64,000 nt of DNA from an uncultured virus (IMG/VR IMGVR_UViG_3300020182_000024). Lineage: Duplodnaviria; Heunggongvirae; Uroviricota; Caudoviricetes. The notes below the pieces were generated by a model. That model had not been told where the DNA came from and ran no database searches. It saw only the letters and a list, made by a program, of their open reading frames with translations. Shown here in pieces: positions 12,638 to 48,582 of this stretch. Every line of letters starts with the position of its first letter. Within the stretch, counting starts at the first letter, position 1. A program made the position numbers and the translations under genes. Location of the stretch: IMG/VR virus record IMGVR_UViG_3300020182_000024; one strand, given 5' to 3'.

Positions 12638-12745
12638 GCTCCTATAAGCCATCCTAAGGCCACTTGATACTACCCCTACCTACCCTATTACTTCATCTTA
12701 AAACGCTCTGAAACAGCCCTTAAAACGCCATCTCAGGGGTCTATG
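12638..12745 (+). repeat. dispersed ~108-bp element, copy 1
   Basis: GCTCCTATAAGCC..ACCCCTACCTACCCTA..AAAACGCTCT..TCTCAGGGGT. Confidence 0.8.
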
Positions 12746-13002
12746 AATATACTCTAATATCCCTATATTTACCCTATAAATAAACAGGCTAAACTGGATA
12801 GGTATAGGAATGGATTATGTAATACTGAATGTTAGTCTATACTAACCATGTAAATATTATAATATATGTAATCTTTATTACCAATATTGGTAATATTATA
12901 CATAATCCACTATTAAAATCAAGCTATTTTAGCCTGTTTATTTTAATTTAATTGAATAAAACACTTGACTTTTGAGATTATAGTGTTTCACGTGTGACAT
13001 AT

Positions 13003-14902
13003 TTAGATAATTCCTACCACTTGGCAAGTCGCTGGGGTATCTTGAGTAATATAATTGCCTGTTTTATACCAATTACCCCAAGTATCTCTCTTGTATTCTA
13101 CATAAGTATAATCTTCTCCCTCATCAGTTAAATAATATCCATCTCCAATACACTCCAGATTAGATGGTTGAGTCTTTGCAGAGTTTATATTGTAAAACAA
13201 CCATTTAAATATACTATTCACTTTCGTATGCTCTCCGATTCTATTAATATTAGTAAATCTCCCTAGAAGCTCCATACAGCCATTCTAAGCGACTCTAGTT
13301 TATCCTTATCAGATACACCATCTGGGTGTTCCAGTATAGCTAATAGCTCGAATTGTACATCTTCTAAGTCTTCCATTAGTAAATCTATATACTCATCCAC
13401 TCCATAATCATCTACATTTTCTAGGAATACATCCCTATCTGTAGGCTGTGTAGGGAATTGAAGGATATTATCATCATCTTTCATGGTTATTCTCCTAGTG
13501 ACAGTGACATACTTAACCCATGCAATTCTCTTAATTGCCACTTATGTTCACACTTGAAGTGATTGTAGTACTCAGTAGCTGCTTCAATATTAGGCCATGT
13601 TTTTACACTCATGTATTGATTTGTCTCGTAAGGGTAGCCACTATCAGTATCTACTGCAATGTACTTCTCACCTTTAGTAAATATATACTTCTTAGTCATA
13701 TTACACCCCTAATCCTATCCCGCCAACGGCTTATACTGTTCCAGTAATTCTGCATTCTCACGTAACACTTGCTTAGCCAGTTCTTGTGATTTGAATGTAA
13801 GGAAATGTAAAAATTTAGTTGGATCCACAATCCATTCATCATTATAACCCCAATGTATATACCAACAAACTTCATTAATATCTTGCTCCCAATCTCCATT
13901 CACCCTCTTCATAATCTGAGATAGTTTAGCCTGTGCTAAATGAGCCTTACATTGGGCTTCTGTGGCATATATATTAGCGTTATTTATTGTAGGATCACAG
14001 TTGTCACTTGTTGGATTAACATAAGCCGCTGTATCAGTATACCATCCACTTACATTTCCTAACTCCTTCCAACGTGTACTAACCTCCTTACTCTTAAACA
14101 CCACTTTCTGTAGTGTGGATTTCTCCATATCCACCTCCATACCCTCTGGAGTGTTATCTGCTAATAATCCTGCTAGGTCTAATGTATTGTTATTCATGTT
14201 GATCTCCTGTTTGATTGTTAATTGAATGTGTATACTATCGTGCTTTATTGGGAAAGTCAAGAGGAGGTATAATAAGGTTTCATATCTACAAGCCCATGTT
14301 CTCTAATGTAATCTTGTATATGACCATAACATAAGTAGTTATAATCATCAAGTGATACAGTTATATCACACCAATTCCCAGAACATTCTGTGCCATACAT
14401 ACTCATAGGGAAGTATACCCCATCTCCGTCATCTTGCATATATCCGAATAAACCTATAGGATCACCGTGGATATCAAACAGATGAATATCATCTATTCCT
14501 TTATCTCTCACCCAATCACCTACTTCACTATCTAACCAAGAACAGCCACCTACATGACGTTCAGGGGGTTGAGATAGTACAAACTGGATGAAATCTTTAT
14601 AATTAGATTGGATATATGGTAAGTTGTATAACATAGTAAATTCCTAATAAAATTTAAATTGAATGTATAGGAGGGATACATCATTATTCAACTCCGCACC
14701 CTTTAATGCTAATATTCAGCACCTCACAATAAACACTATCAAACCAGTGTATATTAGAATGGTAGGCATCCTTGAAGGTCATCTCTCCTGTATCTATTTC
14801 ATCTTGGTGCATAAATTCAAATCCTGATACAGACTCAAATTGGATCATAAATTTACGCTGCTGTTGGTTGATTTTCTTTGCAAATACTGACATATATTCC
14901 AC
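13003..14902 (-). other. block of small hypothetical CDS
   Basis: ORFs 13003-13275, 13263-13541, 13487-13699, 13715-14260, 14257-14634, 14684-14902. Confidence 0.7.
14232..14260 (-). promoter_or_regulatory. sigma70-type promoter
   Basis: TTGACT-17 nt-TAGTAT; implies the 13715-14260 ORF really starts at MNNNT. Confidence 0.6.
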
Positions 14903-15203
14903 TAAAAATTAAAATTGAATGTATATATTAACCTATATTATTAGTAAAATCAACTGTAAAATACATATTAGGAGTATAAAACTCCAGAAAATTAAAATTT
15001 AGACTCTATTATATCACTGAGTTAGGATATTAGAGATGCTGAAAATACATAGGGAATGGCTTCTGATGTATTATTAGGATGTAGTATATAGGGAGTATAA
15101 TTATGTAAATAGTAGCTAAGCACCCCTCTACGCCCATGTCAAATAACTTGTAGGATTTTAAAATACGCTTATTATAACCAAATATTATATACTATCACTA
15201 CAA

Positions 15204-15311
15204 GCTCTTGTAAGCCTCTCTAAGCTATCCTAATATCACCCTATACTACCCTACAGGGTATACTCTAAAACGCTCTCAGAATGGCTAAAAAGGGGCTTCT
15301 CGAAGGTGTTT
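15204..15311 (+). repeat. dispersed ~108-bp element, copy 2
   Basis: GCTCTTGTAAGCCTCTCTAAG..ACCCTATACTACCCTAC..AAAACGCTCTCAGAATGG..GGCTTCTC. Confidence 0.85.
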
Positions 15312-15457
15312 ATATAGTGAGTGTGTATAATATGAATATATAACAGAATGTTATAAGAATAAGAGGGGAATATGTGGATATATTATATGATGATATTGGA
15401 TGATATGACTAGATAGTGTAGCCAAGTGGCTAGTGTGAAGTGTGTTACAGATAGGCA

Positions 15458-15484
15458 TAAAAAAGCCCACTACTGAGAGCGGGC
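15458..15484 (-). terminator. intrinsic terminator
   Basis: GCCC...GGGC stem followed by a T-run on the minus strand. Confidence 0.6.
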
Positions 15485-15737
15485 AAGGTAGGCGACAAAT
15501 GTATTAATTAATCATCACATGATGGATAAGGTAGATAACCTTTTAACTTATCCTCTTCTATAAAATTCAACAGTTCAATAACTGCATCTATATCCTCATC
15601 TAAGATATCTTCTTCTATTTGGCTTATAACCATACGTATTAACTGTTCTTTAGGCATTATGTAATCCTCTTGTTTGATAATGTAGGGGTATTATAATCAT
15701 ACTATATGAATATAGCAAGGGTTATTTGTAATAATAC

Positions 15738-15790
15738 TTATCCACAGATATTTAAAGTTATCCACAGGGTTATCCACATAGTTATACACA
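15738..15790 (+). promoter_or_regulatory. cluster of four DnaA boxes
   Basis: TTATCCACA at 15738, 15758 and 15770; TTATACACA at 15782. Confidence 0.85.
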
Positions 15791-15798
15791 TTCCCTTA

Positions 15799-16452
15799 TT
15801 ACACTCTTACCACTAACTGTTTAATCTTACTACATTTATTACATTTTAATAGTGTTATATGTTTCCTAGTAGAATCACACATTTGATGAGGGATTTTAAC
15901 ATTTACTACACCTGCTTTACTAGCTACTTGCATAGCGTGTTCAAACTGGCTAGGTATAATTTCCTTACTTAGTACATTATAGTTATGATTACATAGTAGT
16001 TGTGTAAACATATTTAGTCCTCGATTTAGTTAATGTACAGCCATCCTGTATAAGCTCATCGACCATATCATTTAACTCAATAACTTGCAATTGTGCTTGG
16101 ATGTACTTATTAGTTAACATAGTTAATGAGAATGATTCCCATTTACTATTAGGTGTAGTCTTATAATGTAGTATTCCGTCTATTACTTGTTCTTCGTAAT
16201 ACATAGTATTCATTCCTATAGTTTGTTATATTCATCAATAGCACGTTGTATATATACAGTTTCCATCACTATATCACCCTCTTTAGTCACTTTATACACC
16301 ACACCATATGGTGTGAATACAACATCTAATTGTATCAAATAAACATTATCACCATATCGACTAAACTTACTAGCTAGTTCGTGTGATATAGAGTATGGGA
16401 ATATATGCTCTAGTTCTATGTGATCATCTGTATTTCTAATAGTCATATCCAA
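15799..16452 (-). other. three small hypothetical CDS
   Basis: ORFs 15799-16011 (C-x-H..C-x2-C), 15989-16213, 16216-16452. Confidence 0.7.
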
Positions 16453-16476
16453 CTCTCTTTGTTAATATTTCTATAT

Positions 16477-16584
16477 GGCTCTGTAAGCCTCTGTACGGGC
16501 TTGTTAATCTACCCTATACTACCCTACAGGGTATAGTCTAAACGTTGCTTAGAATGCAATCTGAGGTCATATAGAGCTATGTTT
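16477..16584 (+). repeat. dispersed ~108-bp element, copy 3
   Basis: GCTCTGTAAGCCTCTGTACGGGC..ACCCTATACTACCCTACAGGGTA..TAAACG..TTAGAATG..TATGTTT. Confidence 0.85.
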
Positions 16585-17117
16585 ATATAAGAGTATAGTA
16601 ATATGTTATTAATAACACTATATAAACATATTATACACACTTATTGACCATTGTCTAATAATCATTAGATATAAACATTTAGTTTAATATATCCATATTG
16701 TATATACATTCAGGATATACATAATTACGTTATTTATAGAATAACATATAGTTAGCCATATTAATAGCATTCTGCTATAACAATTAGGCATAAAAACGGA
16801 TATATTAATAATATAAGAATATTAGGCATATTAAACCACAGATTATACATAAATACTCATTTATTCTAAGAATATAGCTTTTTATAACTAAAAAGTCTAA
16901 GAGATGTTGATTATTTAGTTGTTTTTAGTGGGAAAATGGTTTAAGCATTTTATTAACATTTTATGTATATTTTAACTATTATTAATAAAAGCATTTCAAT
17001 AGAATTTTATGCTTATTTACATATATATCAATACTTGTATAAATAAGCCTTTTACGTATATATGTTTAGTATATACATATCAAAATAAAGTATATTAATA
17101 ATACTATAATGCTTATA

Positions 17118-17435
17118 TCACTTATAATCTATCTGATTAGACTCATACTCTACCTTATTAGTTAGTATATTAAGATAGGCTTCATCTGAGATACAAGAAT
17201 CTTTCTCACATTCTACCTTAGTAGATAAGATATCTATAATATCATCTTTATTATTAATAAGATAATTCATAACACACAGTGCTACTTTAGAAGGTAGATG
17301 ATGGTTACCTGTCATATTATCAATATGTTTACCTAGTCTATTTGTCAAGTGTTCCTCTATTTTATTAACATCCTTGTATTCTTTACCATCTAGTACATAC
17401 ACTGTTTTAGTAGTTGCTATAGCCATAATATTCAC
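17118..17435 (-). CDS. hypothetical protein
   Basis: ORF track; probable start at MAIATT. Confidence 0.7.
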   Translation of the reverse strand: MNIMAIATTKTVYVLDGKEYKDVNKIEEHLTNRLGKHIDNMTGNHHLPSKVALCVMNYLINNKDDIIDILSTKVECEKDSCISDEAYLNILTNKVEYESNQIDYK

Positions 17436-18185
17436 CCTTGTCTATATTATGTTAGCTTACGCTAACGAAATTAAAGTTTAATACTGTATTCAGTCACTTC
17501 ATCTCTCTTATCTATAGATATAATAGAGCCATCTTTTAAAACAATAGTAGTTAATAATGATTATTAGACAATGATAGTAGTCACTCTCTATATTAACTAC
17601 TTTTATTGTATTAATTATATTGAACAACTCTTCTTCACTTATTTCTTTTATAGTCATAATATTCGCCCTATATTATGTTAGCGTAAGCTAACGAGATTAA
17701 ACTTATTAACATATATTCTATTAATATACATTATAAGAGCATTATTTCATGTATATAATACCTTGTCAATAGCTTATTAGTAATATATCTATATAAGTGT
17801 TATATACAACAATTACTACTATGCTGGTGTTTGAGCTAGCGTTAGCTAGTGAGTATAGCATAACAATATAGGGTATAACAATGTTAGTATATAAAAAGAT
17901 TAAGGGCGGGGGTTCTACCCCTGTCCCGCCTTGACTAAACTATTATTAATAAGCATTTGGTATAATAAACTATTATAGCGTTACTCTGTCACAGTATAAA
18001 TAGATAGCTTACGCTATCGAAACAATGTGACAATATATAAGTATATTATAAATTACTATATAATGATGATAGAATAGACTGTAGAAGTGCAACACTAACT
18101 ATTGGTTATTGAATTATGTATATGATTTAATAGGTAATGGTAATAGATTTTTTTCTATTATTATTATATAGGGAAAAACTTGCGA

Positions 18186-18334
18186 AAAATGTCCCAATCG
18201 TTAAAGTAAATTATTAACAAAGTGGTATAAGTTATTGATTTATAAGGGATTGTTAAAAACAGTGTTTTTCAAAATGTCCCAATATGTAAAGTAGTTTATT
18301 AAGACATTGACGTAAGTCATTGATATATAAGGGA
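18186..18334. repeat. two ~64-bp direct repeats, each containing an IHF consensus
   Basis: AAAATGTCCCAAT...TAAGT(T/C)ATTGAT(T/A)TATAAGGGA at 18186 and 18271. Confidence 0.75.
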
Positions 18335-18633
18335 AAATAGGGTATTAAGTTAGTGTATAAGTTAACATCCGTATTAACTTATGGTTATTGGATTATAGGT
18401 ATCCTTTTATTCTATAAAAACTCTACTGTAGCATACTTGTATCTATTACAAACTATAACCGCTTCATTATAGTTTTTAAACTTTATAGCGTCATAATGAA
18501 CGTAACTATCAAAACTACTACTATTACCTTTACTGCATAAAAACTTACCGCTTGATTCCATAATATAGTACATTTTATCACCTTTATAATTTATTAATTG
18601 ACACTACTTATAAACACTACGTAGATACGTGTA

Positions 18634-18742
18634 TTTAGACCCCTGAGAACGCCCATAGAGGCCTATATTAGAGCGTTTTAGCCTTACCTAATAGGGTAGT
18701 AAGGGTATGAACAACAAGCCCGTACAGGGGCTTATATTAGCT
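18634..18742 (-). repeat. dispersed ~108-bp element, copy 4
   Basis: Reverse complement: TAAGCCCCTGTACGGGC..ACCCTTACTACCCTA..AAAACGCTCT..GGGCGTTCTCAGGGGT. Confidence 0.85.
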
Positions 18743-18751
18743 CGTATATAG

Positions 18752-20128
18752 CTATCTATAATTAGATAACACTTGTCCAGTTTGATGTCTCTTGCATCGT
18801 AATAACCCACTAGGGACATCACTAGCCTTACCAATAACAACTCCACAGAATGTAGGTTCGTAGCCTTGGCGTGTGTATTTCAGTCCATAGCGTGTATTTA
18901 TAGAGCCATCTAACTCTTCAATGTGTAGCTTTTGTTGTTCTGTTGTAATAGACATATTAGTCACCTTATTGGTTGTGGCTATTGTTTACCAGCTTGTTAA
19001 CAAGTATAAGCATATTTCCTAGCAATGCAAGCTATTTATAATAAATCTATTTCAATATTGTCGAAATAACCTATTCTAAAATGTAGATTCCTATAGTTAT
19101 ACTCTTTTAACCCTTTTTCTAACATTAATCCGCGTAACATATTAACACTATTATGAGTTTGTATGTAATCTGAGTCTATATTACTATGTACCTTGTTCGC
19201 ATACTCTATCAAGTTGTTATCTGTTAACTCTTGATATTTATGGCAATCTTTTAGATCATTTGTGGGTTTATTGGGTGATATTGTTACAGGTTGGGTGCTT
19301 CCGAAAAAATTAAACATATTATATTCCCCTAGCATCTATTATCAAAAACATAGTATTCATCATTGCTACTCTCAAACTCATCTTGACTATGATCGTAACT
19401 ATTAAAATGATGACCATAACCATCTAAACTACTGTATTCTGCTTGCAACTCCTCTAATTTACCTAATGAAATAATAAGTTTACCTATAGCCTCGTAGGCC
19501 TCTGCCTCTTGCATGGCTTCTAAAACCTCGCAATCAATATCTAGGATATTGGATAAAAAGTTACTATTAAAGCAACCTAGGATATATAGATCATTTTCAA
19601 GCTCTTCTTGTTGGATACTATCAATACAATCTGATTTTATAAATCTTACATTATCCACTTCAAAATCGTTTACTTCTTCTATAATGTTTTGTAGTACTTC
19701 TCTATAATCCGGTTGGCTGTTTAATATCTCACAGTATTCTTTGATTGATTTAATTTCTGAATATTTCATGATGTTTATACCTTTTTAATTTGTTTGTATT
19801 TTCTTGAATCTCTCAAGATGTGGCTATTTTACATGGTGTTCTTAGTGTGTCAATGGTTTAATTCAGAAAAATGAATATTATTTTCCTTTAGTACTTTTAT
19901 TAAGTAATGGGTATTAACAGCGTTGTTATCCCAGATACCAAAACAATCTAACTCACATAATTCTGCTATTTCATCTGTCATACACTCGACTAAGTGATCA
20001 TAATTTTTTGCTACAACGTACCACTTTTGATCATAACCTGTCTTGATAGGTAAAGACCTTGTTATATGTGGATGATGAAAGTATATTTTCTCATTTTCTG
20101 AATCTAAGTTAACACTTAATAATGTCAT
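18752..20128 (-). other. four early-type hypothetical CDS
   Basis: ORFs 18752-18964, 19036-19335, 19329-19769 (acidic), 19850-20128, with nearby sigma70-like promoters. Confidence 0.7.
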
Positions 20129-20552
20129 TTTATTTATTCCTATTTCTGTTTAAGATGTGTTAAGTATAAAGCCTTTTAACATGGTGTCAATAGTTTATTT
20201 AACTTTCTTTCTGGCTTTATTCAGCATGATAAATAAGCGGCTAATATGTCTAGCTTTCGTTGCGCTAGGTTTTAGCTTGTTACATATAGAAATAGCTTTT
20301 AAAATGTTTGTAGTAGTCATTGTTATGTACTCGTTTCGTTGAATGTGTAGCTATTATTAATGACACTCTACACCCTGTCCAATAATAAATAGTTATATAA
20401 ATATGTATTTATATAACAAAATGTTATTTGACTAGATAGGATTAATAGATGACAATGATTACACATTAACAACAGAGAGAGTAAATGATTATGTTTGAAG
20501 GCGATATAATAGATTATGATGAGGAGTTTACAGGTGATGAGTGGGCTGAGAT

Positions 20553-20726
20553 ATGAACGAAAACTATAAGCTAATGATTGAGAGAATAAAAGCGGCGAAC
20601 ACTGTAGAGGTTTTGAGTAGGTTAGAAAAGTCTTGTGTTCGTCTATATGATGCTGGTATATTTAATGAAAAAGAGTTATCAAGGTTAGATGTTAAAATAA
20701 TGGAAAAAATAGCATTAATTGAATAA
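20553..20726 (+). CDS. small hypothetical protein (57 aa, not in track)
   Basis: Hand translation MNENYKLMIERIKAANTVEVLSRLEKS...IALIE. Confidence 0.6.
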   Translation: MNENYKLMIERIKAANTVEVLSRLEKSCVRLYDAGIFNEKELSRLDVKIMEKIALIE

Positions 20727-20734
20727 ATAAACTA

Positions 20735-20762
20735 TTGACAACTAGCAAGGATGCTGTATAAT
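20735..20762 (+). promoter_or_regulatory. strong sigma70-type promoter
   Basis: TTGACA-16 nt-TATAAT. Confidence 0.65.
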
Positions 20763-20922
20763 TTCTTATAAGCAATAGGGAAAACGCCGCTCATTTATTA
20801 TAAAATAATAAAGGGTTACAAATTCACCCAACACATCTATAAGTTTATATAACTAAAAGTTATAAGCGAATCATCTCTTATTCCAAAAAGGAATATAAAT
20901 TTTTATTATAAAATCTGTGTAA

Positions 20923-21157
20923 ATCCATTTTTCTGTTTTTATATGAAAATACCCATTTGACCAATAGCCTTTTTTCTATATAACCAAAAAGAATAAGTAT
21001 ACCACCCCTTATAACTAGAAGAGATATACATTTTCAATATCAAATCTATTTTATATCCATTTTTGTATAAAAATATGAAAAAGCCCATTTGACTAAATTT
21101 TACTATTAGATATAAATTGAATTTTACATTTTTATATGAAAATCACCGTTTGACTAA
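20923..21157 (+). repeat. three copies of an ATATGAAAA..CCRTTTGACYAA motif
   Basis: Copies at 20941, 21073 and 21134; a fourth at 25519. Confidence 0.75.
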
Positions 21158-21172
21158 ATTTTATAAAGAGTT

Positions 21173-21288
21173 GACGCAATAAAACACGTCAATCTAAATT
21201 TAACTTTTAATATCAACAACTTGTATATCCGCGCGCAAAGATATACGTCAAAGTGACTCAAAATAACGACGTATAATCACAGTGTTAT
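21173..21288 (+). mobile_element. attI-like array-terminal site, copy 2
   Basis: Inverted near-copy of 1201-1317; IHF consensus TATCAAcaacTTG at 21211-21223; ends ...ACAGT-GTT at 21284. Confidence 0.65.
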
Positions 21289-21617
21289 CAGTATAAGTTT
21301 TCACTGTAGAGCGTACCGCCATCCGCGGTGTCGCCTCCAACCCTTCGTATTATCTGCCCCGCAGCTTCGGCAACTTTCCATGCCTCCACTCTACTTAGAA
21401 ACTCTCCTTTCTGGTTAATAAACCCCTGTTCAGATGCAACCCAGCCGTACCTTTCGGCAGCCATCAATTCTTCTTTTTGGTTGTGCATAAATCCATCCCA
21501 GTGCCTAACGCCAATCAACAAATGTTTTGTTGCTAGGTGCTGATTGGCAGCACACACTATTCGCTCACTGATAACAACTTCATCAATTTGACTCATTCCG
21601 CTTCGCTCCATTCTCAA
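21288..21617 (-). CDS. cassette-borne hypothetical phage protein (likely start MSQIDE at 21596)
   Basis: IVCAAN..RHWD..QGF..F.SR.EA..LYSENLY; bounded by GTTATCAGT (21284) / ACTGATAAC (21567). Confidence 0.8.
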   Translation of the reverse strand: MRMERSGMSQIDEVVISERIVCAANQHLATKHLLIGVRHWDGFMHNQKEELMAAERYGWVASEQGFINQKGEFLSRVEAWKVAEAAGQIIRRVGGDTADGGTLYSENLY

Positions 21618-21637
21618 TTTATGTAAAGGTTAGCTGT
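21567..21637 (+). mobile_element. attC-like site C2
   Basis: ACTGATAAC-5nt-CAT[C]AATTTGA..GCTTCGC..TCAATTTATG-5nt-GTTAGCTGT; canonical attC layout on the + strand. Confidence 0.85.
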
Positions 21638-21846
21638 CAAAAGCATTCTTTAAGCCTTTCTTCTAACCCTTCTGCTTCGCTCTCACTTGGTATGCCATCA
21701 ACGACAATTATAGTTCTGTCATCTTGCCACTCATAATCTGAGTAGCCCTCATTTTCCAGCGTATCCTCAATTTGAACCTTTCCGCAAATATTTCCTTCAC
21801 CTACATTTAGCGTGATGTAATATTCTTCTACCTGATAAACTGGCAT
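21637..21846 (-). CDS. cassette-borne acidic hypothetical protein
   Basis: Bounded by GTTAGCTGT (21629) / ACAGCTAAC (21871); AGGAG RBS. Confidence 0.8.
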   Translation of the reverse strand: MPVYQVEEYYITLNVGEGNICGKVQIEDTLENEGYSDYEWQDDRTIIVVDGIPSESEAEGLEERLKECF

Positions 21847-21870
21847 ATCTCAATCTCCTGTTAAATTATT

Positions 21871-21923
21871 ACAGCTAACAACGTAATCGTGCCTGACGTT
21901 TCCCACCTCGCGCGATTAGTAGT
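21871..21923 (+). mobile_element. degenerate attC-like site C3
   Basis: ACAGCTAAC..TAATCG..CGATTA hairpin; distal GTT core missing. Confidence 0.55.
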
Positions 21924-22727
21924 CTAAATACTCAATTACACAACTACCAATCATATTTTCTTTAATCACGGCTTCTGGATTATTGTAACAACCAAAACCC
22001 TCATCACTTGCATCGTTATCATCTTCTACATATTTATCTAATACTTCCGTAAGTACATCGACACAATCAAAAAGCGCATCTAAGTTACCGCTAGTTTCTT
22101 CTAAAAATCTTTCTCTATTAAATCTCATTTTTTCTCCTAGTATTATAACACTCTTACAGCAGCACTCATAAAACTATCTATATTTATGTATATATCATAG
22201 TTCTTAATATAACATACATTATTATAAATGTAAATATCTCTATCCTTATATTTTCCAACTTGTTCCTTACATTTCTCTAATTGTACATCAACAAATTGGG
22301 GAGGTGTAAGTAAGATAGATAATATTAGTAATCTAGACAACAACATGATATAAGAATAATTGAATTGCATAAATACCAGCCAAACCCACTAATCCCCATC
22401 CTAACCAATATAATACTAAACTAGGCTTATGTAAGTCAACTCTTGTAATCATATATCTATCATTATTCCGAAGATAATTAATAAATAATAAAATAGCTAA
22501 TAGTAAGCTACCACCAAACTTAATCCAAATATCTAACATGATTCTTCTCCTAACTGGTTAATTTCAAATAACCCTACTTCCACATCTTCCATCCAGTAGT
22601 GATTTCTATTACGTGACATACTATCTACTATAGCATCTACAGTTAATACACTCTTACTAGCTGTATGGAAGTAGATTTCATCACTTTTAGTGTTGTATGC
22701 AATCCAATATTTGTTATCTTCGTTCAT
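21916..22727 (-). other. four small hypothetical CDS, two hydrophobic
   Basis: ORFs 21916-22128, 22143-22370, 22333-22539, 22533-22727. Confidence 0.7.
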
Positions 22728-23340
22728 CTCGCCACCTCGTTATGGTCTTTCTATCTTTATTAAGCATTTCTGCCACTTCAGAGATATTATACCCATCTTC
22801 TAATAAATGTAAAGCCTTTTCTTTAGAAGATTCAATAATATTATCCTTATTCTCTAGTATATCTAATCTAGTGTTAGTATCCATGGCATTTTTAATTAAT
22901 ACGCCTGCTATAGTTTCTAAATCTTCTACTCTTTTAGTGAGCTGCACTTGATGACTCAATGTGTTCAATAGTACATTCAAACTAGATGCTGTCTTTAAGC
23001 TACGTTTAGTGTGCTTATTCATAACACCTTTATCCACCATTTCAAGCGTTACAGGATGTTCTTTGTGAGAGTTAATTACATAATCTAACACACTTTTGTA
23101 TAGTGGGCTGTGTTTAATCTCATCTATCCATTGATCTGATTTATTAGTCTTATCTGCTACATATCTAAGAGCTATATCAGCATTATCTCCCGTATCTAAT
23201 ACATACCCATAGGCATCCTTAGTATCTTCCTTGGAGGCTCTTTTTCGAGGATGTATAGAGCCTTTATCAATAAGATCTTGTATTAACTCTAGTTTATCCT
23301 TAGCTTGGATAGCAATTAGTTGTTTTAAGTCTTTACTCAT
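22714..23340 (-). CDS. DNA-binding protein with C-terminal helix-turn-helix
   Basis: ALHLLEDGYNISEVAEMLNKDRKTITRW preceded by a coiled coil. Confidence 0.75.
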   Translation of the reverse strand: MSKDLKQLIAIQAKDKLELIQDLIDKGSIHPRKRASKEDTKDAYGYVLDTGDNADIALRYVADKTNKSDQWIDEIKHSPLYKSVLDYVINSHKEHPVTLEMVDKGVMNKHTKRSLKTASSLNVLLNTLSHQVQLTKRVEDLETIAGVLIKNAMDTNTRLDILENKDNIIESSKEKALHLLEDGYNISEVAEMLNKDRKTITRWRDERR

Positions 23341-23641
23341 ATATAAAAGTGATTCCCATGTAAGTGAAAAACTCCACAGCTTTTTGCCTTATTCAGAAAA
23401 TCCTGTATGGTAAAATACAGGTTTAATAATTAATTTAAATTATACTATGAGTTCTTCTTTAGTGCAAACATAAAAGATAACATTACCATACCCAAATAAG
23501 TAAACATTAATGGTATATCAGCCCAGTGTAGGACATCTGTCATAGGGGATACTACTACACCTATGTAGAATACTAAATATAACATACCTAATGGTAATAA
23601 CCACCATAATAACTTCATAATCTATCTCCTATAATATACTA

Positions 23642-23763
23642 AAAACATACCCCTAGAAGGCCATATAAGCCATTCTGAGAGCGTTTTACACTTTTTATGT
23701 ACTACCCTACCACCTATATTAAGTGAGCTAATAAGGGGCTTAATGGGGCTTCTCAGGGGTCTA
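23642..23763 (-). repeat. dispersed ~108-bp element, copy 5 (central box inverted)
   Basis: Reverse complement: TAAGCCCCTT..TAGGGTAG..AAAACGCTCTCAGAATGG..TTCTAGGGGTATGTTTT. Confidence 0.8.
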
Positions 23764-23768
23764 TATAA

Positions 23769-24597
23769 CTATTGAATATTACCTTTAAAATCCCACCAAG
23801 TGCTATTGCCATCATTATACAGTAAGTACACCTCATTTTCAATAGTTAATAACTTACTATTATTAGGGTCTAGTCTATTCATCATAACCTGCATTTGATC
23901 TAACTCTTTAAATATCAAATCTCGCTCTTGGCATTTTTCTCTGAGTTTAGATATTATAAGGTCATTGTAATGCTTCTTAAATTCATCTGGTGACATACTA
24001 TAACCCACTTATAATATTAAAATGTGTAGCCCAAAAATAGGTTTGATACCCCATCCCAAAGAAAGATACGTATGTGTTGGTGTAATTTATATCCCAGATA
24101 TGTAATATAGGCATAGGTGTATCTATACCATTACCCAGTATAGCACCTATCATTTTCACAATCCAGCTAATAACACATATAGTACTTATAATAAATAATA
24201 TAGTTTCCATCATTTAATCCTTTTTATAACTTTTAATTGTATCTATTAATACATTTTTAAACTCACTAGTAATTTCAGAGTTAATCGCTTCTTCACTTAG
24301 TTCACTTGCAATAATAAGGTGCATAGTTTCTTTAGAGGGGATTAAATTAACAAGTAATGTGGTAAATAATAATAAACAAGTGTAAAGGGGTAACTTATAT
24401 TTTTTTAGATTCTCTTGATATAACTCTCCAGAGAATCCAGAGGGGTTATGATAACTTACTACCTTATTCTCATCATCACTAATAAATATAGCTATACCTA
24501 TAAGTATCATAAGAAAGCACACCCATAGAAAAACTACTAAGCCTATTAAATTACTACCTAAATCTGCAACATATAATAAAATTGATACTGTATTCAT
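23769..24597 (-). other. three hypothetical CDS, two membrane proteins
   Basis: ORFs 23769-24008, 23998-24213, 24214-24597. Confidence 0.7.
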
Positions 24598-24609
24598 AAC
24601 TTTTTCCTT

Positions 24610-24999
24610 TTATATTAGTTTAATTGTTAACATTGTACCACACCCTTGAGCTAATGACAAGGCTGTTAATCGTGTAAGCCCATCTACTAACTCCATTTCA
24701 TCTTCCTTAATAAGGATAGGCTTCTCAGGCCATATATCAGACATACCATTATATTTAATATGTTTAGTTAGGTGTGGTAACTTCTTAATAGCTCTACTAG
24801 GAAGTGGTTTATATTTTAACACACTTAGTAAGTATTCTGCAAGCCTACAACTGATAGAGAATACTTCATTATCATGTTCATCTAATCCTACGTAGTATTG
24901 GTCTAATAATTCATATAAGTTAACCTGCATATTAATACTCCACCTGCTCACCACCATAATTTTCTCTATACCACACCATCTGTTCTTTGACAGCAGCAC
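24610..24999 (-). CDS. possible ParB/Srx-fold protein (likely start MQVN)
   Basis: PILI....ELVDGLTRLTA resembles the ParB N-terminal DG-x-x-R motif. Confidence 0.45.
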   Translation of the reverse strand: MLLSKNRWCGIEKIMVVSRWSINMQVNLYELLDQYYVGLDEHDNEVFSISCRLAEYLLSVLKYKPLPSRAIKKLPHLTKHIKYNGMSDIWPEKPILIKEDEMELVDGLTRLTALSLAQGCGTMLTIKLI

Positions 25000-25150
25000 T
25001 CCTAATCCTATTTATTAATCTAGAATCTAGATCATCTAACTCTCCTATATCAATCAACCACTCAAGGTACTGAGCATCTATTTTTAATACTTCTCCTATA
25101 GTTTTACCCTCATACTTACCAAAAGTTATTGCTTTATTTGATTTCTTCAT
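24932..25150 (-). CDS. DUF3820 / exonuclease X C-terminal-like small protein
   Basis: ITFGKYEGKTIGEV..IDAQYLEWL. Confidence 0.7.
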   Translation of the reverse strand: MKKSNKAITFGKYEGKTIGEVLKIDAQYLEWLIDIGELDDLDSRLINRIRSAAVKEQMVWYRENYGGEQVEY

Positions 25151-25162
25151 AATATTAACTCC

Positions 25163-25459
25163 TTAGTAATAAAACTGCAAATTGTTTTTAGTTTTATAAC
25201 CTTCTTGCCTAAGTGCGTTAATCATATTATCTCTACCTACAGGATTACTAGTCACTAGCTCCACTTTTCTTGGTAAGACTTCATTATTTATTGCCCACAT
25301 CATAATATCATAACCACTCTCACAATCTCCTAGATCATGGTCGAAGATTACACAAGTTATATACGCTTCTAGCTTCTGTAGGACTTGTTTAGCAGCATCA
25401 GGTGTTCTAGCTATAATATCCGCAGGTGTATTTCGTAGATCATCTATCAGTAAGTACAT
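25163..25459 (-). CDS. cyclic-phosphate-processing-type receiver-domain protein
   Basis: LLIDDLR..ART..FDHDLG..GYDI..W..VTSNPVG..NM. Confidence 0.75.
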   Translation of the reverse strand: MYLLIDDLRNTPADIIARTPDAAKQVLQKLEAYITCVIFDHDLGDCESGYDIMMWAINNEVLPRKVELVTSNPVGRDNMINALRQEGYKTKNNLQFYY

Positions 25460-25566
25460 AATTATTAACTCCTCTATTTAAGTTGCAACCATTATTACAT
25501 ATCCATTTTTGTATGTCAATATGAAAATCCCCGTTTGACTAAAATTAATATAATAGATAATAAGGG

Positions 25567-25595
25567 TTGACTTAGGATGTAGATGTGTGTATAGT
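25567..25595 (+). promoter_or_regulatory. sigma70-type promoter for the replication block
   Basis: TTGACT-17 nt-TATAGT. Confidence 0.65.
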
Positions 25596-25639
25596 AAGGT
25601 GAGATAGTTTATAAAACAAACCAAAGTGAGGGTAAGAAG

Positions 25640-25861
25640 ATGATTAAGACGTTTTTCATAGTAATAATATTCACAATAGGGGGAGAGCAGAAGTTCCTAG
25701 ATGGTTGGCATCCCAGACAATCCAAAGGTTATGAAGTTTGCCAGCAAGGTGCAAGTAATATAAGAGAATATTTCATTAAAAATAAGAATGAAATCAAGAA
25801 AGAGATACAGCAAATAGAAGTATCATGTAGAGCTGTATTAGTTCCAGCGTTGGAATCTTAG
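25640..25861 (+). CDS. hypothetical protein
   Basis: ORF with hydrophobic N-terminus. Confidence 0.7.
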   Translation: MIKTFFIVIIFTIGGEQKFLDGWHPRQSKGYEVCQQGASNIREYFIKNKNEIKKEIQQIEVSCRAVLVPALES

Positions 25862-25869
25862 GAGTTAAT

Positions 25870-26286
25870 ATGAAATTAACACAAGAAGAAGTAGATTATT
25901 TCCTAGAGTTTGTATATAATGCTATTCAAACACCAGATGGGACTATCTTACACTCTGCATATAGACATGATTATAAACAATATGTAGATAAGAATGGCGA
26001 AACTTACATACTGGATGGAGGACAATATTACCAACGTGGTAGTGTCAATAAGGAGAAAGCTAAAGATATCTCTGTCAGAATGAGTGATGATATATCTCTT
26101 ATTAGAGAACACTACACTTGGGGAACTTATGGAAAAGATGGCAGCGATACATTAACTCCTATATTATTAAAGGATATGAGCAATTCACACATTCAAGCTG
26201 TTATAAAAGATGGTTATGTGGCTTCCCCTATTATGAAATTGGAGTTGCAATATCGTGAAGCTAATAGTATAGTAGTGGAAGATTAG
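25870..26286 (+). CDS. hypothetical phage protein
   Basis: NAIQTPDGTIL.S..RHDY..DGG..Y.R..WGTYGKDG. Confidence 0.8.
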   Translation: MKLTQEEVDYFLEFVYNAIQTPDGTILHSAYRHDYKQYVDKNGETYILDGGQYYQRGSVNKEKAKDISVRMSDDISLIREHYTWGTYGKDGSDTLTPILLKDMSNSHIQAVIKDGYVASPIMKLELQYREANSIVVED

Positions 26287-26387
26287 AAGCCCCTGTACGG
26301 ACAAGTAGCTCAAGGGTATGCTACCCTACAGGGTCACACCTAAACGTGCCGTGGTGGGGCTTATATGGCGTTCTCAGTGGTATGTTT
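26281..26387 (+). repeat. dispersed ~108-bp element, copy 6
   Basis: AAGCCCCTGTACGG..CTACCCTACAGGGT..TAAACG..TATGGCGTTCTCAGTGGTATGTTT. Confidence 0.75.
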
Positions 26388-26403
26388 ACTATAGGAATAT
26401 TAA

Positions 26404-26605
26404 TATGAAATGGTATGAGATTAGCACCTATGATTATGATGGGTTAAGGTCGGAAGTTCCTATACATTTAGGCAACTACATGGCCAGTAATAAAGGGGAG
26501 GCTAAGGCAAAATGTAAGAAAAGATTTCAAGGGTACTGCCACCCCATAAATCAACTAGGTTTTAGCGATATGGTAGCTAAAAAGTTAGATAGGGGTAAGG
26601 TATGA
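26404..26605 (+). CDS. hypothetical protein (start approximate, MKWYE)
   Basis: Upstream extension in the track runs through repeat copy 6. Confidence 0.55.
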
Positions 26606-26720
26606 ACGAAAATAGATTAGAAGAGACACACTTGCTTGAAGCGATATCTATTATTTTAATTATAGGTATTGTGATTTTTAATATAATTACAAGATAAATG
26701 TTGTTTATAAGGAGTAGCAA

Positions 26721-26978: not shown

Positions 26979-26979
26979 T

Positions 26980-34800: not shown

Positions 34801-35603
34801 CTAATAGTACTTTTATATTTAGACAAAACGGATTTATAAGTATTACAGGTAATTGCACATTTGGAGGAGGTGCGTCTAAGATTGCTAATATTATTGGAGA
34901 ATCTAGTTCTGTGGGTGAGATAGTTTTTGATTCATTTTGGAAATCAGCGGCACCCCTTACTAAGTTAAAGGTTGCTGTAGAGAAATGGTGGGAAGCTAAA
35001 GGCAATAGGAAGTTTATAAAGGGCTTAGATGGGAGGCAAGTTAGAACTAGATTTAAACATGCACTATTAAATTCTTTGTTACAGTCAGGTGGTGCTATTG
35101 CTACTAAAACTATGGCTGTATTTCACGATCAGTTATTAACAGAAGAAGGATTACAAATTGACTTCTTTAAAGATGATTGGAAGAATACAGAGTTTAATCA
35201 ACTTATGATTATTATGCATGATGAGATAGCATTAGAGGAGTCTAAAAGTAGGTTCAAATTTAAAAAGTTTAACAGTGAAGAAGATGCCTTGACATTCTCT
35301 AAAGAAGATGATAGAATATGGAGTGAGGTAATAGAAGGTAAAAATAATACTTACTTTCTTAATATTGACGGTATAAACGATTCTCAATTATATAAGACTA
35401 AAGGAGAGGCTAAGTCTGCATTTAAAAGGATAGAAGGTAAGTGTAAGGTGTTACCATCTATAGGAAATTTGTATTATTTAGCACATACTAAAGCTGGAGA
35501 GTTAATATCTAAAGCTGTGGAGATGACTAATAATCATTATAAACTAAAAGTACCCTTGGAGATGGGGTATGCTGTGGGAGTGTCGTGGGCTGATACACAT
35601 TAA
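31803..35603 (+). CDS. family A DNA polymerase with 3'-5' exonuclease and intein
   Basis: DIET, HNGINFD, TGRMRH, DMASLEAR, RSNAKSVKYS|CTFG, LNSLLQS, MHDE, SWADTH. Confidence 0.95.
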   Translation: MTNITGDIETNNLLNNESINYNASPYCLKDTYKTHCIVLEIHETNEIIAFYDGDKYILDGREFIEKDDKYTYELKDYEPIKYTHYQLGEFPNYIKGIKDLNKVIFHNGINFDFLSCKLYFDMDYTIGGLDGESDTWCGREVDIVDTMILSKTLNSDRFCGHSLDKLSKVAGGAEKIDFRPHVPKKDMYNTFAADMLYYNIFDVKSNTDVYNYLEHERTQDGWDWDAAIRLEKKTAEIVTRSSHRGFKFDVKLAEKCIHELDELMSERRQRVEPLLPPRAATKKFLKEHTPPASQVLTKDITLPKKFFNKDLSLSKTATSWLEKWDGEYDDDKKIIKVQGNVLKRDTTTGFPEVAFTQQTVAAHMVNFVNKHNGVINEDDMTVELFGEVYKLPVAVEPLKTTMVAEIKNTTHIKEWLVSLGWQPSEYKMKDITLKSGTKIKRDSEDLEKAVDRYIAETLESEFCKDRCAQLKARPTEHSLKRIIMEKANKYGCKVLTSPSFTIGQEKELCKDLERIAERFPYVQDIVEYLTYKHRRSSILGGDVDWDSDEEPEKGYMAHVRDDGRIAAPADTLGAATGRMRHKNIVNVPRVSSLYGKEMRSLFKVEDDCLKIGSDMASLEARLEGHYCHKYDVEGKPYCKSLTLSQPNDVHSLTANYISSIIGKDFSRSNAKSVKYSCLPVENTEVLTTSGWKYYHELCEGDEILNYNVDTNMIERDFISKLHYYKDAEIMKVSNKFYGFEATPDHRWYGWNRRMKGSGKTATRFNEYKFFTTEEMNSEYNILCAAPYKGGSSIITKDESALVAWLLSDGYYFWSDRSETTSASNGRLKGIVASISQSKNKFYKEVEQILGINNIEYTKDFYKKDNGNDVYTYRLKSNDIRDFMGRVVKSRNQKHEVDWASWVLDLSKDALDSFIYNFWLADGASKGMEFNKCTKIYQNEGKIADAVALALYLQGNRISITDHTQEKKCKNITQLRLSHFGMGNTKKEMIENKDVFCLTAPNSTFIFRQNGFISITGNCTFGGGASKIANIIGESSSVGEIVFDSFWKSAAPLTKLKVAVEKWWEAKGNRKFIKGLDGRQVRTRFKHALLNSLLQSGGAIATKTMAVFHDQLLTEEGLQIDFFKDDWKNTEFNQLMIIMHDEIALEESKSRFKFKKFNSEEDALTFSKEDDRIWSEVIEGKNNTYFLNIDGINDSQLYKTKGEAKSAFKRIEGKCKVLPSIGNLYYLAHTKAGELISKAVEMTNNHYKLKVPLEMGYAVGVSWADTH
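33831..34853 (+). mobile_element. intein (341 aa) with LAGLIDADG-type motifs
   Basis: CLPVENTEVLTTSGW..TPDH..WLLSDG..FWLADG..VFCLT..ITGN followed by Cys+1. Confidence 0.93.
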
Positions 35604-44129: not shown

Positions 44130-44323
44130 ACAATAATCCATACCATAAGAAAATAACTAGTGGGGTAAATTAATACTTGGCAAATAGGGGGAGGATGTGA
44201 AAGTACCTGTAGATGGTATGTTATGGGTAATCCTGCTAGGTGGCTCTGTGATATACCCCTTGGGATTATTAAGTACATAGATACATTACACAGGTGTATA
44301 CCTAGAGAATAAAAGTGCTACCT

Positions 44324-44431
44324 AAAACATACCCCTAGAACGCCCCTGATTGCGTTCTAAGAGCGTTTTGGCTCGAAGTAGTAGGGTAGGTAGGGGTGGT
44401 GGGACAAGCCCGCATAGAGGCTTACAAGAGC
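44324..44431 (-). repeat. dispersed ~108-bp element, copy 7
   Basis: Reverse complement: GCTCTTGTAAGCCTCTATGCGGGC..ACCCCTACCTACCCTAC..AAAACGCTCTTAGAA..GGGCGTTCTAGGGGTATGTTTT. Confidence 0.88.
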
Positions 44432-44459
44432 ATATAACATTAATTAAGAGGAATAGATT

Positions 44460-46135: not shown

Positions 46136-46169
46136 AAAACCCACTAGACTAACAATCCAGTGGGTTTTT
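46136..46169. terminator. bidirectional terminator
   Basis: AAAACCCACT...AGTGGGTTTT between convergent blocks. Confidence 0.75.
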
Positions 46170-46174
46170 ATTGC

Positions 46175-46995: not shown

Positions 46996-47019
46996 ATTAT
47001 TTTCCTTTATTTATATATG

Positions 47020-47069
47020 AAAAAATCCCCTAGCTGATCTACGAGGAGGAGGACGTAGGGCTAGGGGAT
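47020..47069 (-). terminator. long hairpin / terminator with a (CCT)-repeat loop
   Basis: ATCCCCTAGC..CTACG-TCCTCCTCCT-CGTAG..GCTAGGGGAT followed by a T-run. Confidence 0.7.
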
Positions 47070-47083
47070 GGCCAGCGATGTTA

Positions 47084-47410
47084 TTAAACATCATTATTTT
47101 TTATTATTATTTTATCTAAGAACTTAGAGAAATTATCTTTAGGTATTACTTCAAATTCACATTGCAAGTCATAAGATGTATAGATATATATCTGAGACTC
47201 TGGGTGTGTATCCTGTATTTCCCTTGCTAATTCTAAACCATCTTTAACACCTAATAGGTAGTCTACCAGAAAGATATCATAATCTACTAATTCTTTTACA
47301 TCTATATCTTCATCTACTACTTTATATTTAATCACTTTCCTAGTTTCAAGTACAGCAGATATGAGATACCTGTGAGCTTCATTATCATCTATGTAGACTA
47401 TTTTAATCAT
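47084..47410 (-). CDS. stand-alone CheY-like response-regulator receiver domain
   Basis: IVYIDD, DIFLVD (phosphoacceptor), DGLELA, IYTS, IPK. Confidence 0.88.
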   Translation of the reverse strand: MIKIVYIDDNEAHRYLISAVLETRKVIKYKVVDEDIDVKELVDYDIFLVDYLLGVKDGLELAREIQDTHPESQIYIYTSYDLQCEFEVIPKDNFSKFLDKIIIKNNDV

Positions 47411-47810
47411 TCTTATTGCTCATCAAGTAATCCATTGTTTTACTAAACATTTCTGTCATCTGAGTATTAGCTGCTCTAGCTTCTAGTATTACCCTTTGAG
47501 ATTCTTTATTTAGTTCATTAAGTTCAGCATTAATCTTTTTAGTGTCAACTAACTCTTTAGTTAGTTTAGCTTTATCTCCTAAACAAGTAGCTCTTTCTTG
47601 CTTAGCCAGTTCTAATTCTTCCTTAATGTATTCATCACTTACTTTCTGATCTTGTCTTGATTGTGTATTATGTTTCGCATTTTGTCTCACAATGACAAGT
47701 ACACATATAGAGACAATAAGTAGTGCTAATATAACGATGGTATTACCTCCCCCTACTTCCGCTCCTAAATTTGTTATTTTTTCTATTAGGATTCCTATTT
47801 TGTCTATCAT
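47403..47810 (-). CDS. single-pass membrane protein with coiled coil
   Basis: One hydrophobic helix followed by a heptad-rich region. Confidence 0.75.
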   Translation of the reverse strand: MIDKIGILIEKITNLGAEVGGGNTIVILALLIVSICVLVIVRQNAKHNTQSRQDQKVSDEYIKEELELAKQERATCLGDKAKLTKELVDTKKINAELNELNKESQRVILEARAANTQMTEMFSKTMDYLMSNKND

Positions 47811-48352
47811 TTAACCACACCTTTAAAACTGAGATAATAAGACAACACATAATCCCCAATAAACTGAGATATTCCGTTTCCGACATTTTTAGCCCTACCT
47901 TTTCTATCGTACAAGTAGTAAGCAGCTATTAAGTAGTAGGTTATTATCATGCAACTATATATCCACATCTCTCCTAGTAGTATAGCAGGTGCATATCCAG
48001 TAGTGTCATATATAAGGTTACTTGCGTGTATGCCTAAATTATGATACCATTGAATAATACCTAATACATTTATCACAAGTTCAACACCTAACAGTGTCAT
48101 CACTGTACACCGTAGCCTTGATGGAGACAGAAGTGATAATAGTGTAACACCTATTGTAACACTGATAGCATTTATAACATAACCATATCCATCCCGTATT
48201 TCATACTCTAATAGGAAAGATAAACCCTTAGTTATTTCTGGTAGTAAAGTTGCTAACACAAATACACCACAAACTAATACCCCTTGTTTAGTAGGATGGG
48301 TTAGTGTATAGTATATACAAAGGCATACTAAGGATAACCAAAGTATTAACAT
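47807..48352 (-). CDS. multi-pass membrane protein
   Basis: About five hydrophobic segments. Confidence 0.8.
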   Translation of the reverse strand: MLILWLSLVCLCIYYTLTHPTKQGVLVCGVFVLATLLPEITKGLSFLLEYEIRDGYGYVINAISVTIGVTLLSLLSPSRLRCTVMTLLGVELVINVLGIIQWYHNLGIHASNLIYDTTGYAPAILLGEMWIYSCMIITYYLIAAYYLYDRKGRAKNVGNGISQFIGDYVLSYYLSFKGVVK

Positions 48353-48353
48353 A

Positions 48354-48416
48354 TTAACTACCCCTTATTTTAGGCTTATCTGAGCTATCTCTTGAGGTTC
48401 TAGTTGGACTTGACAT
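48354..48416 (-). CDS. putative 20-aa peptide MSSPTRTSRDSSDKPKIRGS
   Basis: AAGGTG RBS; stop 1 nt before the next ATG. Confidence 0.45.
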   Translation of the reverse strand: MSSPTRTSRDSSDKPKIRGS

Positions 48417-48473
48417 TTGACACCTTTAACTTAATTAATTATTGATTTATAGTGTAACCCTATCCATACCCTT

Positions 48474-48582
48474 AAAACATAGCCCTAGACGGGCTTAGAT
48501 TCCATTCTGAGAGCATTTCTCTATTTATGTGTAGGGTAGGATAGGGTCTAAACTACGTGAGCTTAGAGAGGCTTATAGGAGC
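48474..48582 (-). repeat. dispersed ~108-bp element, copy 8
   Basis: Reverse complement: GCTCCTATAAGCCTCTCTAAG..ACCCTATCCTACCCTAC..AAATGCTCTCAGAATGG..TCTAGGGCTATGTTTT. Confidence 0.88.

Follow-up and report, generated by a model that had tools for sequence, protein, structure and literature searches.

The locus and its family of intergenic elements

The DNA under study is a 64,000-nt stretch of an uncultured virus (IMG/VR record IMGVR_UViG_3300020182_000024); this whole stretch is the window, and all coordinates refer to it unless the related contigs L127, L130 or L132 are named. The window is part of a myovirus genome encoding a ribonucleotide reductase, a PolA-type polymerase, a primase-helicase, a PhoH/Dda-type helicase, a tail sheath and baseplate proteins, with distant likeness to Alteromonas phage PT11-V22 and Felix O1-type phages (sheath identity 30-33%), and the DNA runs that contain its sequence carry a marine metagenome label. 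Our subject is a family of short elements dispersed through the gaps between its genes, which a first-pass annotation made from the letters alone had put forward as candidate strong sites for DNA gyrase.

Searching the window with an nhmmer profile of its eight copies returned exactly eight full-length matches (E 1.4e-28 to 5.7e-21), which confirmed the annotated places and strands to within a few bases; the next match in the window had E 2.9 and thus no further full copy was found there, in agreement with a second profile of 15 copies drawn from the window and its relatives. Repeat finding joined the same places to one another on both strands, and the core pattern matched five times in the window as against 0 in 100 shuffles. 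The copies are 48-63% identical to one another and of similar size, although their profile envelopes of 109-120 bp run slightly longer than the constant ~108 bp first ascribed to them. All eight lie in gaps between open reading frames (ORFs), as the annotation had placed them, with the 5' end of the copy at 26281 overlapping a stop codon; its tally of eight had, however, passed over a ninth, truncated copy at 13262-13305 (E 0.008). The copies are listed below, together with the score of each on the gyrase matrix introduced in the next section and the 4-bp stagger that the matrix predicts.

12631-12748 (8-copy-profile envelope 12633-12749), plus strand: copy 1; nhmmer E 2e-24; matrix score 9.0; predicted stagger TACC at 12681-12684; flanked by sigma70-like promoters (12922-12856, minus strand) on one side and the start of ORF 12629-12333 on the other.
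13262-13305, plus strand: truncated remnant (ninth, partial copy), left ~45 nt only; profile positions 2-45; nhmmer E 0.0077 with the 15-copy profile.
15198-15317 (envelope 15199-15318), plus strand: copy 2; nhmmer E 4e-26; matrix score 9.5; predicted stagger 15247-15250.
16470-16588 (envelope 16472-16589), plus strand: copy 3; nhmmer E 5e-25; matrix score 7.9; predicted stagger 16520-16523; flanked by a promoter-like site (16657-16630, minus strand) on one side and ORF 16452-16216 on the other.
18630-18746, minus strand: copy 4; nhmmer E 6e-26; matrix score 10.5; predicted stagger 18695-18698; begins 6 nt past the stop of ORF 18964-18752.
23638-23756 (envelope 23638-23753), minus strand: copy 5; nhmmer E 2e-20; matrix score 12.0, the best; predicted stagger 23703-23706.
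26275-26392 (envelope 26282-26392), plus strand: copy 6, delimited by alignment; nhmmer E 2e-22 for 26283-26391; matrix score 9.9; predicted stagger 26322-26325; overlaps the stop codon of ORF 25870-26286.
44321-44437 (envelope 44319-44436), minus strand: copy 7; nhmmer E 6e-29; matrix score 7.6; predicted stagger 44385-44388; occupies most of a 181-bp divergent intergenic gap.
48471-48589 (envelope 48470-48587), minus strand: copy 8; nhmmer E 7e-25; matrix score 8.8; predicted stagger 48535-48538; begins directly past the stop of the holin-like ORF 49031-48591 (PHROG holin).

Five of the copies fall within a minus-strand block of small ORFs with large gaps (9.6-25.6 kb), which also holds several sigma70-like promoter matches of 11-12/12, and the remaining three are at 26.3, 44.3 and 48.5 kb. 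At the place of the truncated remnant the related phage has a full copy, to whose left part the remnant is 91% identical (L127 10955-11033) before diverging. The minus-strand ORF 13263-13541 passes through this remnant at its 3' end. Its alignment with the ortholog in the relative covers just 48 residues, and a portion of the ORF may thus have come from the repeat.

Outside the window, IMG/VR record G001 represents a fragment of this phage at 100% identity, while a related phage (G002, and metagenome loci L127, L128 and L132), 70-90% identical to the window in patches, carries five copies in its early region and the short contig L130 carries one. A loose three-word pattern applied to viral contigs produced 120 mostly chance loci, of which nhmmer passed only the same phage and one relative, and a stricter pattern produced seven metagenome loci, three of them (L129, L131 and L133) without a profile match. 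No copy was found at 27 loci around holin and helicase relatives (30-70% amino acid identity); two specific pattern scans over 185,579 bacterial and archaeal species, each represented by a single genome, returned 0 copies and did not trace the family to a host; and a near-identity search of the INPHARED phages gave only a 54-bp polymerase match. Because it is present in one related phage and absent from the 27 more distant loci and from the bacterial pattern scans, the family looks lineage-specific. As a separate observation on the same region, five small ORFs of the window at 11189-12632 are missing from the related phage (compared with L127 and L132), and early-region gene content varies by cassettes between close relatives.

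Helical phasing and fit to the gyrase motif

The first-pass annotation had described conserved words that recur about every helical turn and had called for a periodicity check. A period is indeed present, in base composition rather than in conservation: the AT/GC profile of the family peaks at a period of 11.0 bp, a value reached by 0 of 5000 column permutations, whereas the conservation profile is not periodic at 10-10.5 bp (power p about 0.9; best period 18). Taken singly, 10 of 15 copies have their best AT/GC period at 11.0-11.25 bp; the signal was weaker in 23 control intergenic 115-mers, with an in-band power of at most 1.23 versus 0.67-2.45 in the copies. Substitutions that preserve the weak/strong class (W/S; A or T versus G or C) are slightly enriched (39.6% versus 33.5% expected), by a statistic that ignores the relatedness of the copies.

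In E. coli the gyrase motif is a symmetric 130-bp sequence: the cleavage core lies at its center, and in the arm on either side GC content varies with a period of 10.75 bp (Sutormin et al., PMC6379681). Phased GC around gyrase cut sites is also described for S. pneumoniae (PMC12630141). We took the E. coli Topo-Seq gyrase matrix, with which the strong sites of Mu, pSC101 and pBR322 are reported to score highest, from supplementary table DS10 of the former study (PMC6379681) and reimplemented it. As a check on the implementation, each of two reference records gave its known site as the top match: the annotated cut site for Mu (12.5) and par for pSC101 (14.2). Within the window, the eight best non-overlapping peaks were the eight elements, at 7.6-12.0 on a matrix that is E. 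coli's and may not suit the gyrase of the host, against a background with a mean of -7.9 (sd 3.4) and a next best peak of 6.5. The 4-bp stagger predicted by the matrix coincides with TACC of the central CTACCCTA box in all eight copies, so that the modeled cut falls within the central box, in agreement with the place that the annotation had predicted. For the related phage, four of the five copies on L127 are the top four matrix peaks of 20 kb and the fifth scores 4.5; the L130 copy scores 9.1. Several copies are accompanied by secondary peaks (6.5-7.9) about 80 bp to one side (centered at 12762 in the window and at 16574, 10117 and 11107 in L127), in flanks that hold extra TACCCTA-like words, and the phased pattern therefore seems to continue beyond the element.

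This agreement with the Topo-Seq motif held under controls for composition. Measured against in-place mono- and dinucleotide shuffles, the elements gave z 2.6-8.1; 200 column-permuted matrices reached a mean best score of 1.9 ± 0.66 and a maximum of 4.03, versus 9.41 for the real matrix; with GC regressed out, seven of the eight elements occupied ranks 1-7 and the eighth rank 14; among 8043 130-mers with a GC fraction of at least 0.40, none outside the elements scored above 6.3; and in about 250 kb from other phages, made up of 13 AT-rich loci, only four peaks reached 7.6 or more. The separate components of the motif were likewise positive in all eight copies, namely the W/S phase in the left and the right arm each (z 0.7-4.6), the G-versus-C and A-versus-T polarity in each arm (z 1.0-3.0) and the central 36 bp (z 0.8-3.1). 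Since each arm is positive for polarity in every copy, the polarity is mirrored as in the gyrase motif, which argues against a simple tandem 11-mer origin. A score of at least 7.6 is kept in 14 of 15 copies despite their 48-63% identity, where random substitution at equal divergence leaves 3.6%.

Collectively, the phasing, the matrix rank and the predicted cut place suggest that the phage carries, in these elements, dispersed strong gyrase sites that form a BIME-2-like family and act as double-stranded DNA, a reading to which we assign a probability of roughly 45%. BIME-2 repeats are preferentially cleaved by gyrase and constitute transcription-independent strong sites in E. coli (PMC6379681). 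Of the computational comparisons that the annotation had proposed, those of periodicity and of the Topo-Seq motif favored its reading. Sequence likeness to the Mu strong gyrase site (SGS) and pSC101 par was not significant (best nhmmer E 0.14 for pSC101 and 6.4 for Mu), a likeness that the known strong sites do not show to each other either. The words that it had ascribed to pSC101 are present at positions 4698-4740 of that plasmid, under its best matrix site.

Several points weigh against a family of gyrase sites. The common sequence with Mu SGS and pSC101 par amounts to words of 9-13 nt (nhmmer E at least 0.14), and the case is thus far made wholly from the motif match. Composition-matched random sequence scores at least 9 about once per thousand and, because the copies are homologous, the eight matches approximate one independent observation. 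The score sits mostly in 43 conserved columns (5.4-7.4 units per copy), while the 36 variable columns are barely above chance (-7.4 versus -23.0 ± 6.3 summed over 15 related copies; single-copy p 0.04-0.78), so that selection on the phase, as opposed to selection on the sequence for another reason, is weakly shown. The raw score also climbs with GC, and since phage loci of 45-60% GC show many peaks of at least 7.6, absolute scores are no proof of unusual strength and are to be read against composition. In E. coli itself, only 5 of 13 top-scoring sites were reported as cut in vivo (PMC6379681). The matrix is that of E. coli, the observed period is 11.0 bp versus 10.75 bp in the motif, one relative's copy has the low score of 4.5 noted above, and the copies do not occupy convergent junctions, the places where positive supercoiling would be expected to accumulate.

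The matrix arms, moreover, mainly detect any phasing near 11 bp, and would also be matched by another wrapped complex or by intrinsic curvature. The elements could accordingly be assembly sites for a different DNA-bending or DNA-wrapping protein (an early phage or host nucleoid protein), or intrinsically curved DNA serving as a domain boundary or architectural element, with no part played by gyrase. Most of the evidence for gyrase would be compatible with this explanation as well. The 11.0-bp AT/GC phasing, which extends over about ten turns and which any wrapped complex would favor, is the strongest signal, and the larger part of the score is retained by an arms-only matrix. The conserved words AAGCC, TACCCTA and AAAACGCTCT resemble sequence-specific contacts, whereas the gyrase motif is degenerate; 10 of 19 TACCCTA occurrences lie outside the copies, some of them in other intergenic gaps; and an early helix-turn-helix (HTH) ORF (22714-23340; HTH_23, E 6e-6) lies near copy 5. 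That generic HTH is nevertheless the only candidate protein, and the central core fits the gyrase cleavage consensus in a register identical in all eight copies, both arms share the mirrored base polarity of the gyrase motif, and the length of the elements agrees with the 130-bp gyrase footprint (PMC6379681). We therefore regard a wrapping protein or curvature in place of gyrase as unlikely, if a serious competitor.

Orientation, symmetry and recombination among the copies

Relative to local transcription, five copies of the window are forward and three reverse, and orientation differs between relatives at syntenic places. The L127 copy at 15144 (minus strand) faces the opposite way from window copy 2 at 15199 (plus strand), and the L127 copy at 18226 (plus strand) from window copy 4 at 18630 (minus strand), each of the latter pair directly past the stop of orthologous ORFs. 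The first-pass annotation had overlooked these flips, the recombination described below and a weak inversion of the arms. Its statement that there is no terminal repeat holds for 8 of 15 copies, which give no signal, but is weakened by the others: a likeness between the left arm and the reverse-complemented right arm is seen at p<=0.01 in 4 of 15 copies and at p 0.05-0.075 in 3 of 15, and a reverse-arm profile matches at E 0.002-0.2. Some copies hold palindromic modules (AAGCC..GGCTT; AGAA..TTCT). The most symmetric is copy 5 (23638), in which the central box is inverted and an inverted right-arm module stands on the left side, and which for this reason matches the profile in both orientations (opposite-orientation E 3.6e-12 with the 8-copy and 1.4e-13 with the 15-copy profile).

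The copies also differ in ways that point to exchange. The L127 copy at 16445 is chimeric, its left half being nearest to window copy 44319 (84%) and its right half, together with nine flanking bases, nearest to copy 15199 (94%), and an indel in L132 relative to the window stops at the left boundary of copy 12633. From the chimeric, truncated and inverted copies among relatives we infer that the copies recombine. Contigs of four marine DNA runs compared with 9000-28500 show loose ends or joints at or near the element boundaries 15198, 16582, 18646 and 23643, and joints 25112>26390 and 26381>26704; these ends were not counted as junction evidence, because contigs with other repeat copies would stop there anyway. 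Among the joints listed for these contigs, none excises an element exactly.

Exchange of this kind raises the question of whether the family is a selfish repeat, similar to a miniature inverted-repeat transposable element (MITE) or a REPIN, that multiplies in intergenic DNA with no role for the phage, its phasing and matrix match being accidents of the ancestral sequence. The elements are multi-copy, non-coding, intergenic and found in either orientation, their arms are weakly inverted, copies are chimeric, truncated or inverted between relatives, and the family is restricted to one lineage; MITEs do occur in viral genomes, but in only 0.01% of viral sequences (PMC11602168). We nonetheless found no target-site duplication, the longest word common to a copy's own flanks averaging 3.9 versus 4.2 ± 1.1 for cross pairs, and the 136 window ORFs scanned (43 with PHROGs and 93 with Pfam) included neither a transposase nor a RAYT or recombinase. 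Among the joints listed for related contigs there is no precise presence/absence joint, and the scans of 185,579 species genomes were empty. Block-wise conservation at 48-63% identity with the matrix score kept argues for selection, and the chance odds of such a match are about 1e-3. A purely selfish origin thus appears distinctly improbable. As a class assignment, membership among MITEs was rejected on the defining features, target-site duplication and a transposase, both of which are lacking in the window.

The placement of the copies between early transcription units also recalls the PeSL cassettes of T4-type phages, which consist of a sigma70 promoter and a terminator stem-loop aimed at a gene (PMC2839356), and the elements might similarly be regulatory cassettes, bidirectional terminators or attenuators and perhaps promoter parts, copied between early units by recombination. 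In 7-8 of 15 copies the 3' half consists of an A-tract, a long stem and a U-rich tail; two copies carry a terminator-like flag; four of the eight begin on or at most 16 nt past an upstream stop codon; and three of the eight separate a sigma70-like promoter from the gene that follows. Like PeSLs (PMC2839356; PMC4122927), the elements stand at recombination junctions of a plastic early region, as seen from the truncated copy, the chimera, the indel at an element boundary and the inverted syntenic copies. Opposed to this are the mixed orientation, where a PeSL points at its gene, the absence of a conserved -35/-10 pair inside the element and of a consensus stem on either strand (RNAalifold), a U tail missing from four copies, and a separate terminator and promoter already present upstream of the element in three gaps. 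A regulatory cassette would also leave the best-conserved half (AAGCC, CTACCCTA) without a role. We consider this function less credible still than selfish spread, and membership in the PeSL class was rejected on its defining features, there being no conserved promoter and both orientations being used. A promoter reading taken by itself was also dropped after a by-eye look for -35/-10 pairs inside the element in both orientations, in which none was conserved.

A structured RNA, which the annotation had named as the outcome contrary to its proposal, did not appear at the level of folding. With 15 copies as input, RNAalifold returned an empty consensus for each strand, and likewise when limited to the 3' half, although the claim of no shared hairpin holds only for the family as a whole, since the 3' half folds into a long A-tract/U-tract hairpin in 7-8 of 15 single copies. 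Single-copy folds compared with shuffles gave z from +1.1 to -2.5 with neither strand consistently more stable. Rfam returned 0 matches at gathering score over the whole window and 0 at E<=1 over 12.4-26.6 kb, ARAGORN found no tRNA, and no RNA run is among the listed sequencing runs that contain the window sequence. A family of ~110-nt small RNA genes, each with its own promoter and terminator, would be in keeping with the AT-rich, TATA-like flanks, the U-rich 3' tail of some copies and the few copies that fold better than shuffles; it is opposed by the empty Rfam searches and consensus structure, by the lack of a conserved promoter and by an orientation that is mixed with respect to neighboring genes and inverted at syntenic sites, and we judge it highly improbable. 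Because orientation is mixed and flipped, no consensus structure is present and Rfam is silent, a strand-specific RNA role does not fit, whereas a function at the DNA level fits the mixed orientation, the syntenic flips and the missing consensus fold. The attC-like, iteron or origin, and CRISPR-repeat-mimic readings were dropped as well, given the lack of a whole-length hairpin, the mixed orientation and an arm polarity that is mirrored and not tandem.

Proposed mechanism, known counterparts and neighboring features

If the elements are gyrase sites, they would be lineage-specific homologous double-stranded sites of about 115-130 bp for strong binding and cleavage by the host DNA gyrase. The central CTACCCTA box would form the G-segment, cut with a 4-bp stagger at TACC, and the arms, in which A/T-rich steps recur at 11-bp intervals and G/C polarity is mirrored across the center, would each wrap around one GyrA C-terminal domain. 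A two-fold symmetric enzyme could use such a site in either orientation, which would account for the mixed and flipped copies. Situated in the gaps that separate transcription units, for the most part in the early region with its dense promoters, the copies may act as fixed entry points for gyrase that keep the phage DNA negatively supercoiled or bound supercoil domains; alternatively, the phage may benefit because they sequester gyrase. Homologous recombination among copies would spread and reshuffle the family. A more far-reaching version holds that a virulent marine myovirus has evolved, and spreads by intragenomic recombination, dyad-symmetric 'gyrase landing pads', a viral analogue of BIME-2 that would split the early region into supercoiling domains or trap host gyrase during take-over, with the symmetry letting copies flip and exchange and so driving modular shuffling of early genes; we regard this fuller scenario as doubtful, though worth stating.

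Compared with the strong gyrase sites of Mu, pSC101 par and pBR322 and with the 130-bp motif, the elements share a length of about 115-130 bp, a central core and two arms phased at ~11 bp with mirrored polarity, and in the same implementation their scores of 7.6-12.0 are in a range comparable to Mu SGS (12.5) and pSC101 par (14.2). They differ in that those sites are single, mutually non-homologous and located in a transposable phage and plasmids, whereas the candidate sites described here form eight or more homologous dispersed copies in a virulent-type myovirus. To our knowledge, strong gyrase sites have been known as single sites in transposable phage Mu and a few plasmids, and dispersed gyrase-binding repeats only from bacterial chromosomes (BIME-2); we found no report in the literature of a homologous multi-copy gyrase-site family in a lytic-type phage. 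The elements resemble the BIME-2/REP sequences of E. coli in being dispersed, intergenic and mosaic, with partly palindromic modules in either orientation, but BIMEs are chromosomal and built of ~35-bp REP stem-loops while the phage elements have no consistent stem-loop, and the two pattern scans found none of the latter in bacterial genomes. BIMEs are linked to RAYT transposases, and a Pfam scan of 93 ORFs in these 64 kb of phage DNA revealed no RAYT/Y1 transposase.

With the PeSL cassettes of T4-type phages the elements share the character of short repeated intergenic cassettes in the plastic early/ORFan regions of a myovirus, at points of recombination and modular shuffling; unlike PeSLs, they have no conserved promoter or common stem and are found in either orientation. 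Correia elements and RUP, examples of bacterial MITEs, are about 100-150 bp long, non-coding, multi-copy and intergenic, and the phage elements match them in these respects and in their weakly inverted ends, but they show no target-site duplication, no transposase in the window, and significantly inverted ends in only 4 of 15 copies. Should gyrase binding be real, phages could manage or hijack host supercoiling by cis-acting DNA, beyond proteins alone; topology studies and plasmid engineering would gain compact, portable gyrase sites of natural origin; and DNA mechanics would be tied to the modular shuffling of early genes.

The small-ORF region and its surroundings hold further repeats. A GC-rich hairpin at 9618-9634, with a terminator-like flag on both strands, is located exactly at the convergent junction of the plus- and minus-strand gene blocks. 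A second repeat family of four ~54-nt copies (20915-20968, 21047-21100, 21108-21161 and 25493-25546) ends in a TTGAC -35-like word and probably marks early promoters with a common upstream part. Bracketing the whole small-ORF region is a 47-nt inverted repeat (1201-1247 and 21242-21288), 91% complementary with arms 20 kb apart, and a tandem-like direct repeat of 64 nt (18186-18249 and 18271-18334; 80% identity) lies in a 754-bp gene-free gap that is conserved in the related phage at L127 17745-17889.

Some coding features of the window also stand out. The ORF of the PolA-type DNA polymerase (31803-35603) encodes 1266 amino acids, of which residues 2-678 and about 1000-1266 match PHROG profiles; the ~320 unmatched residues in the middle may be an inserted domain or an intein. 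Two stand-alone receiver-domain proteins are encoded on the minus strand, at 25163-25459 (cREC_REC, E 2e-18) and 47084-47410 (Response_reg, E 8e-8), and ORF 26980-29217 specifies a single 745-aa product in which a PhoH-like N-terminal part is fused to a Dda-like helicase part.

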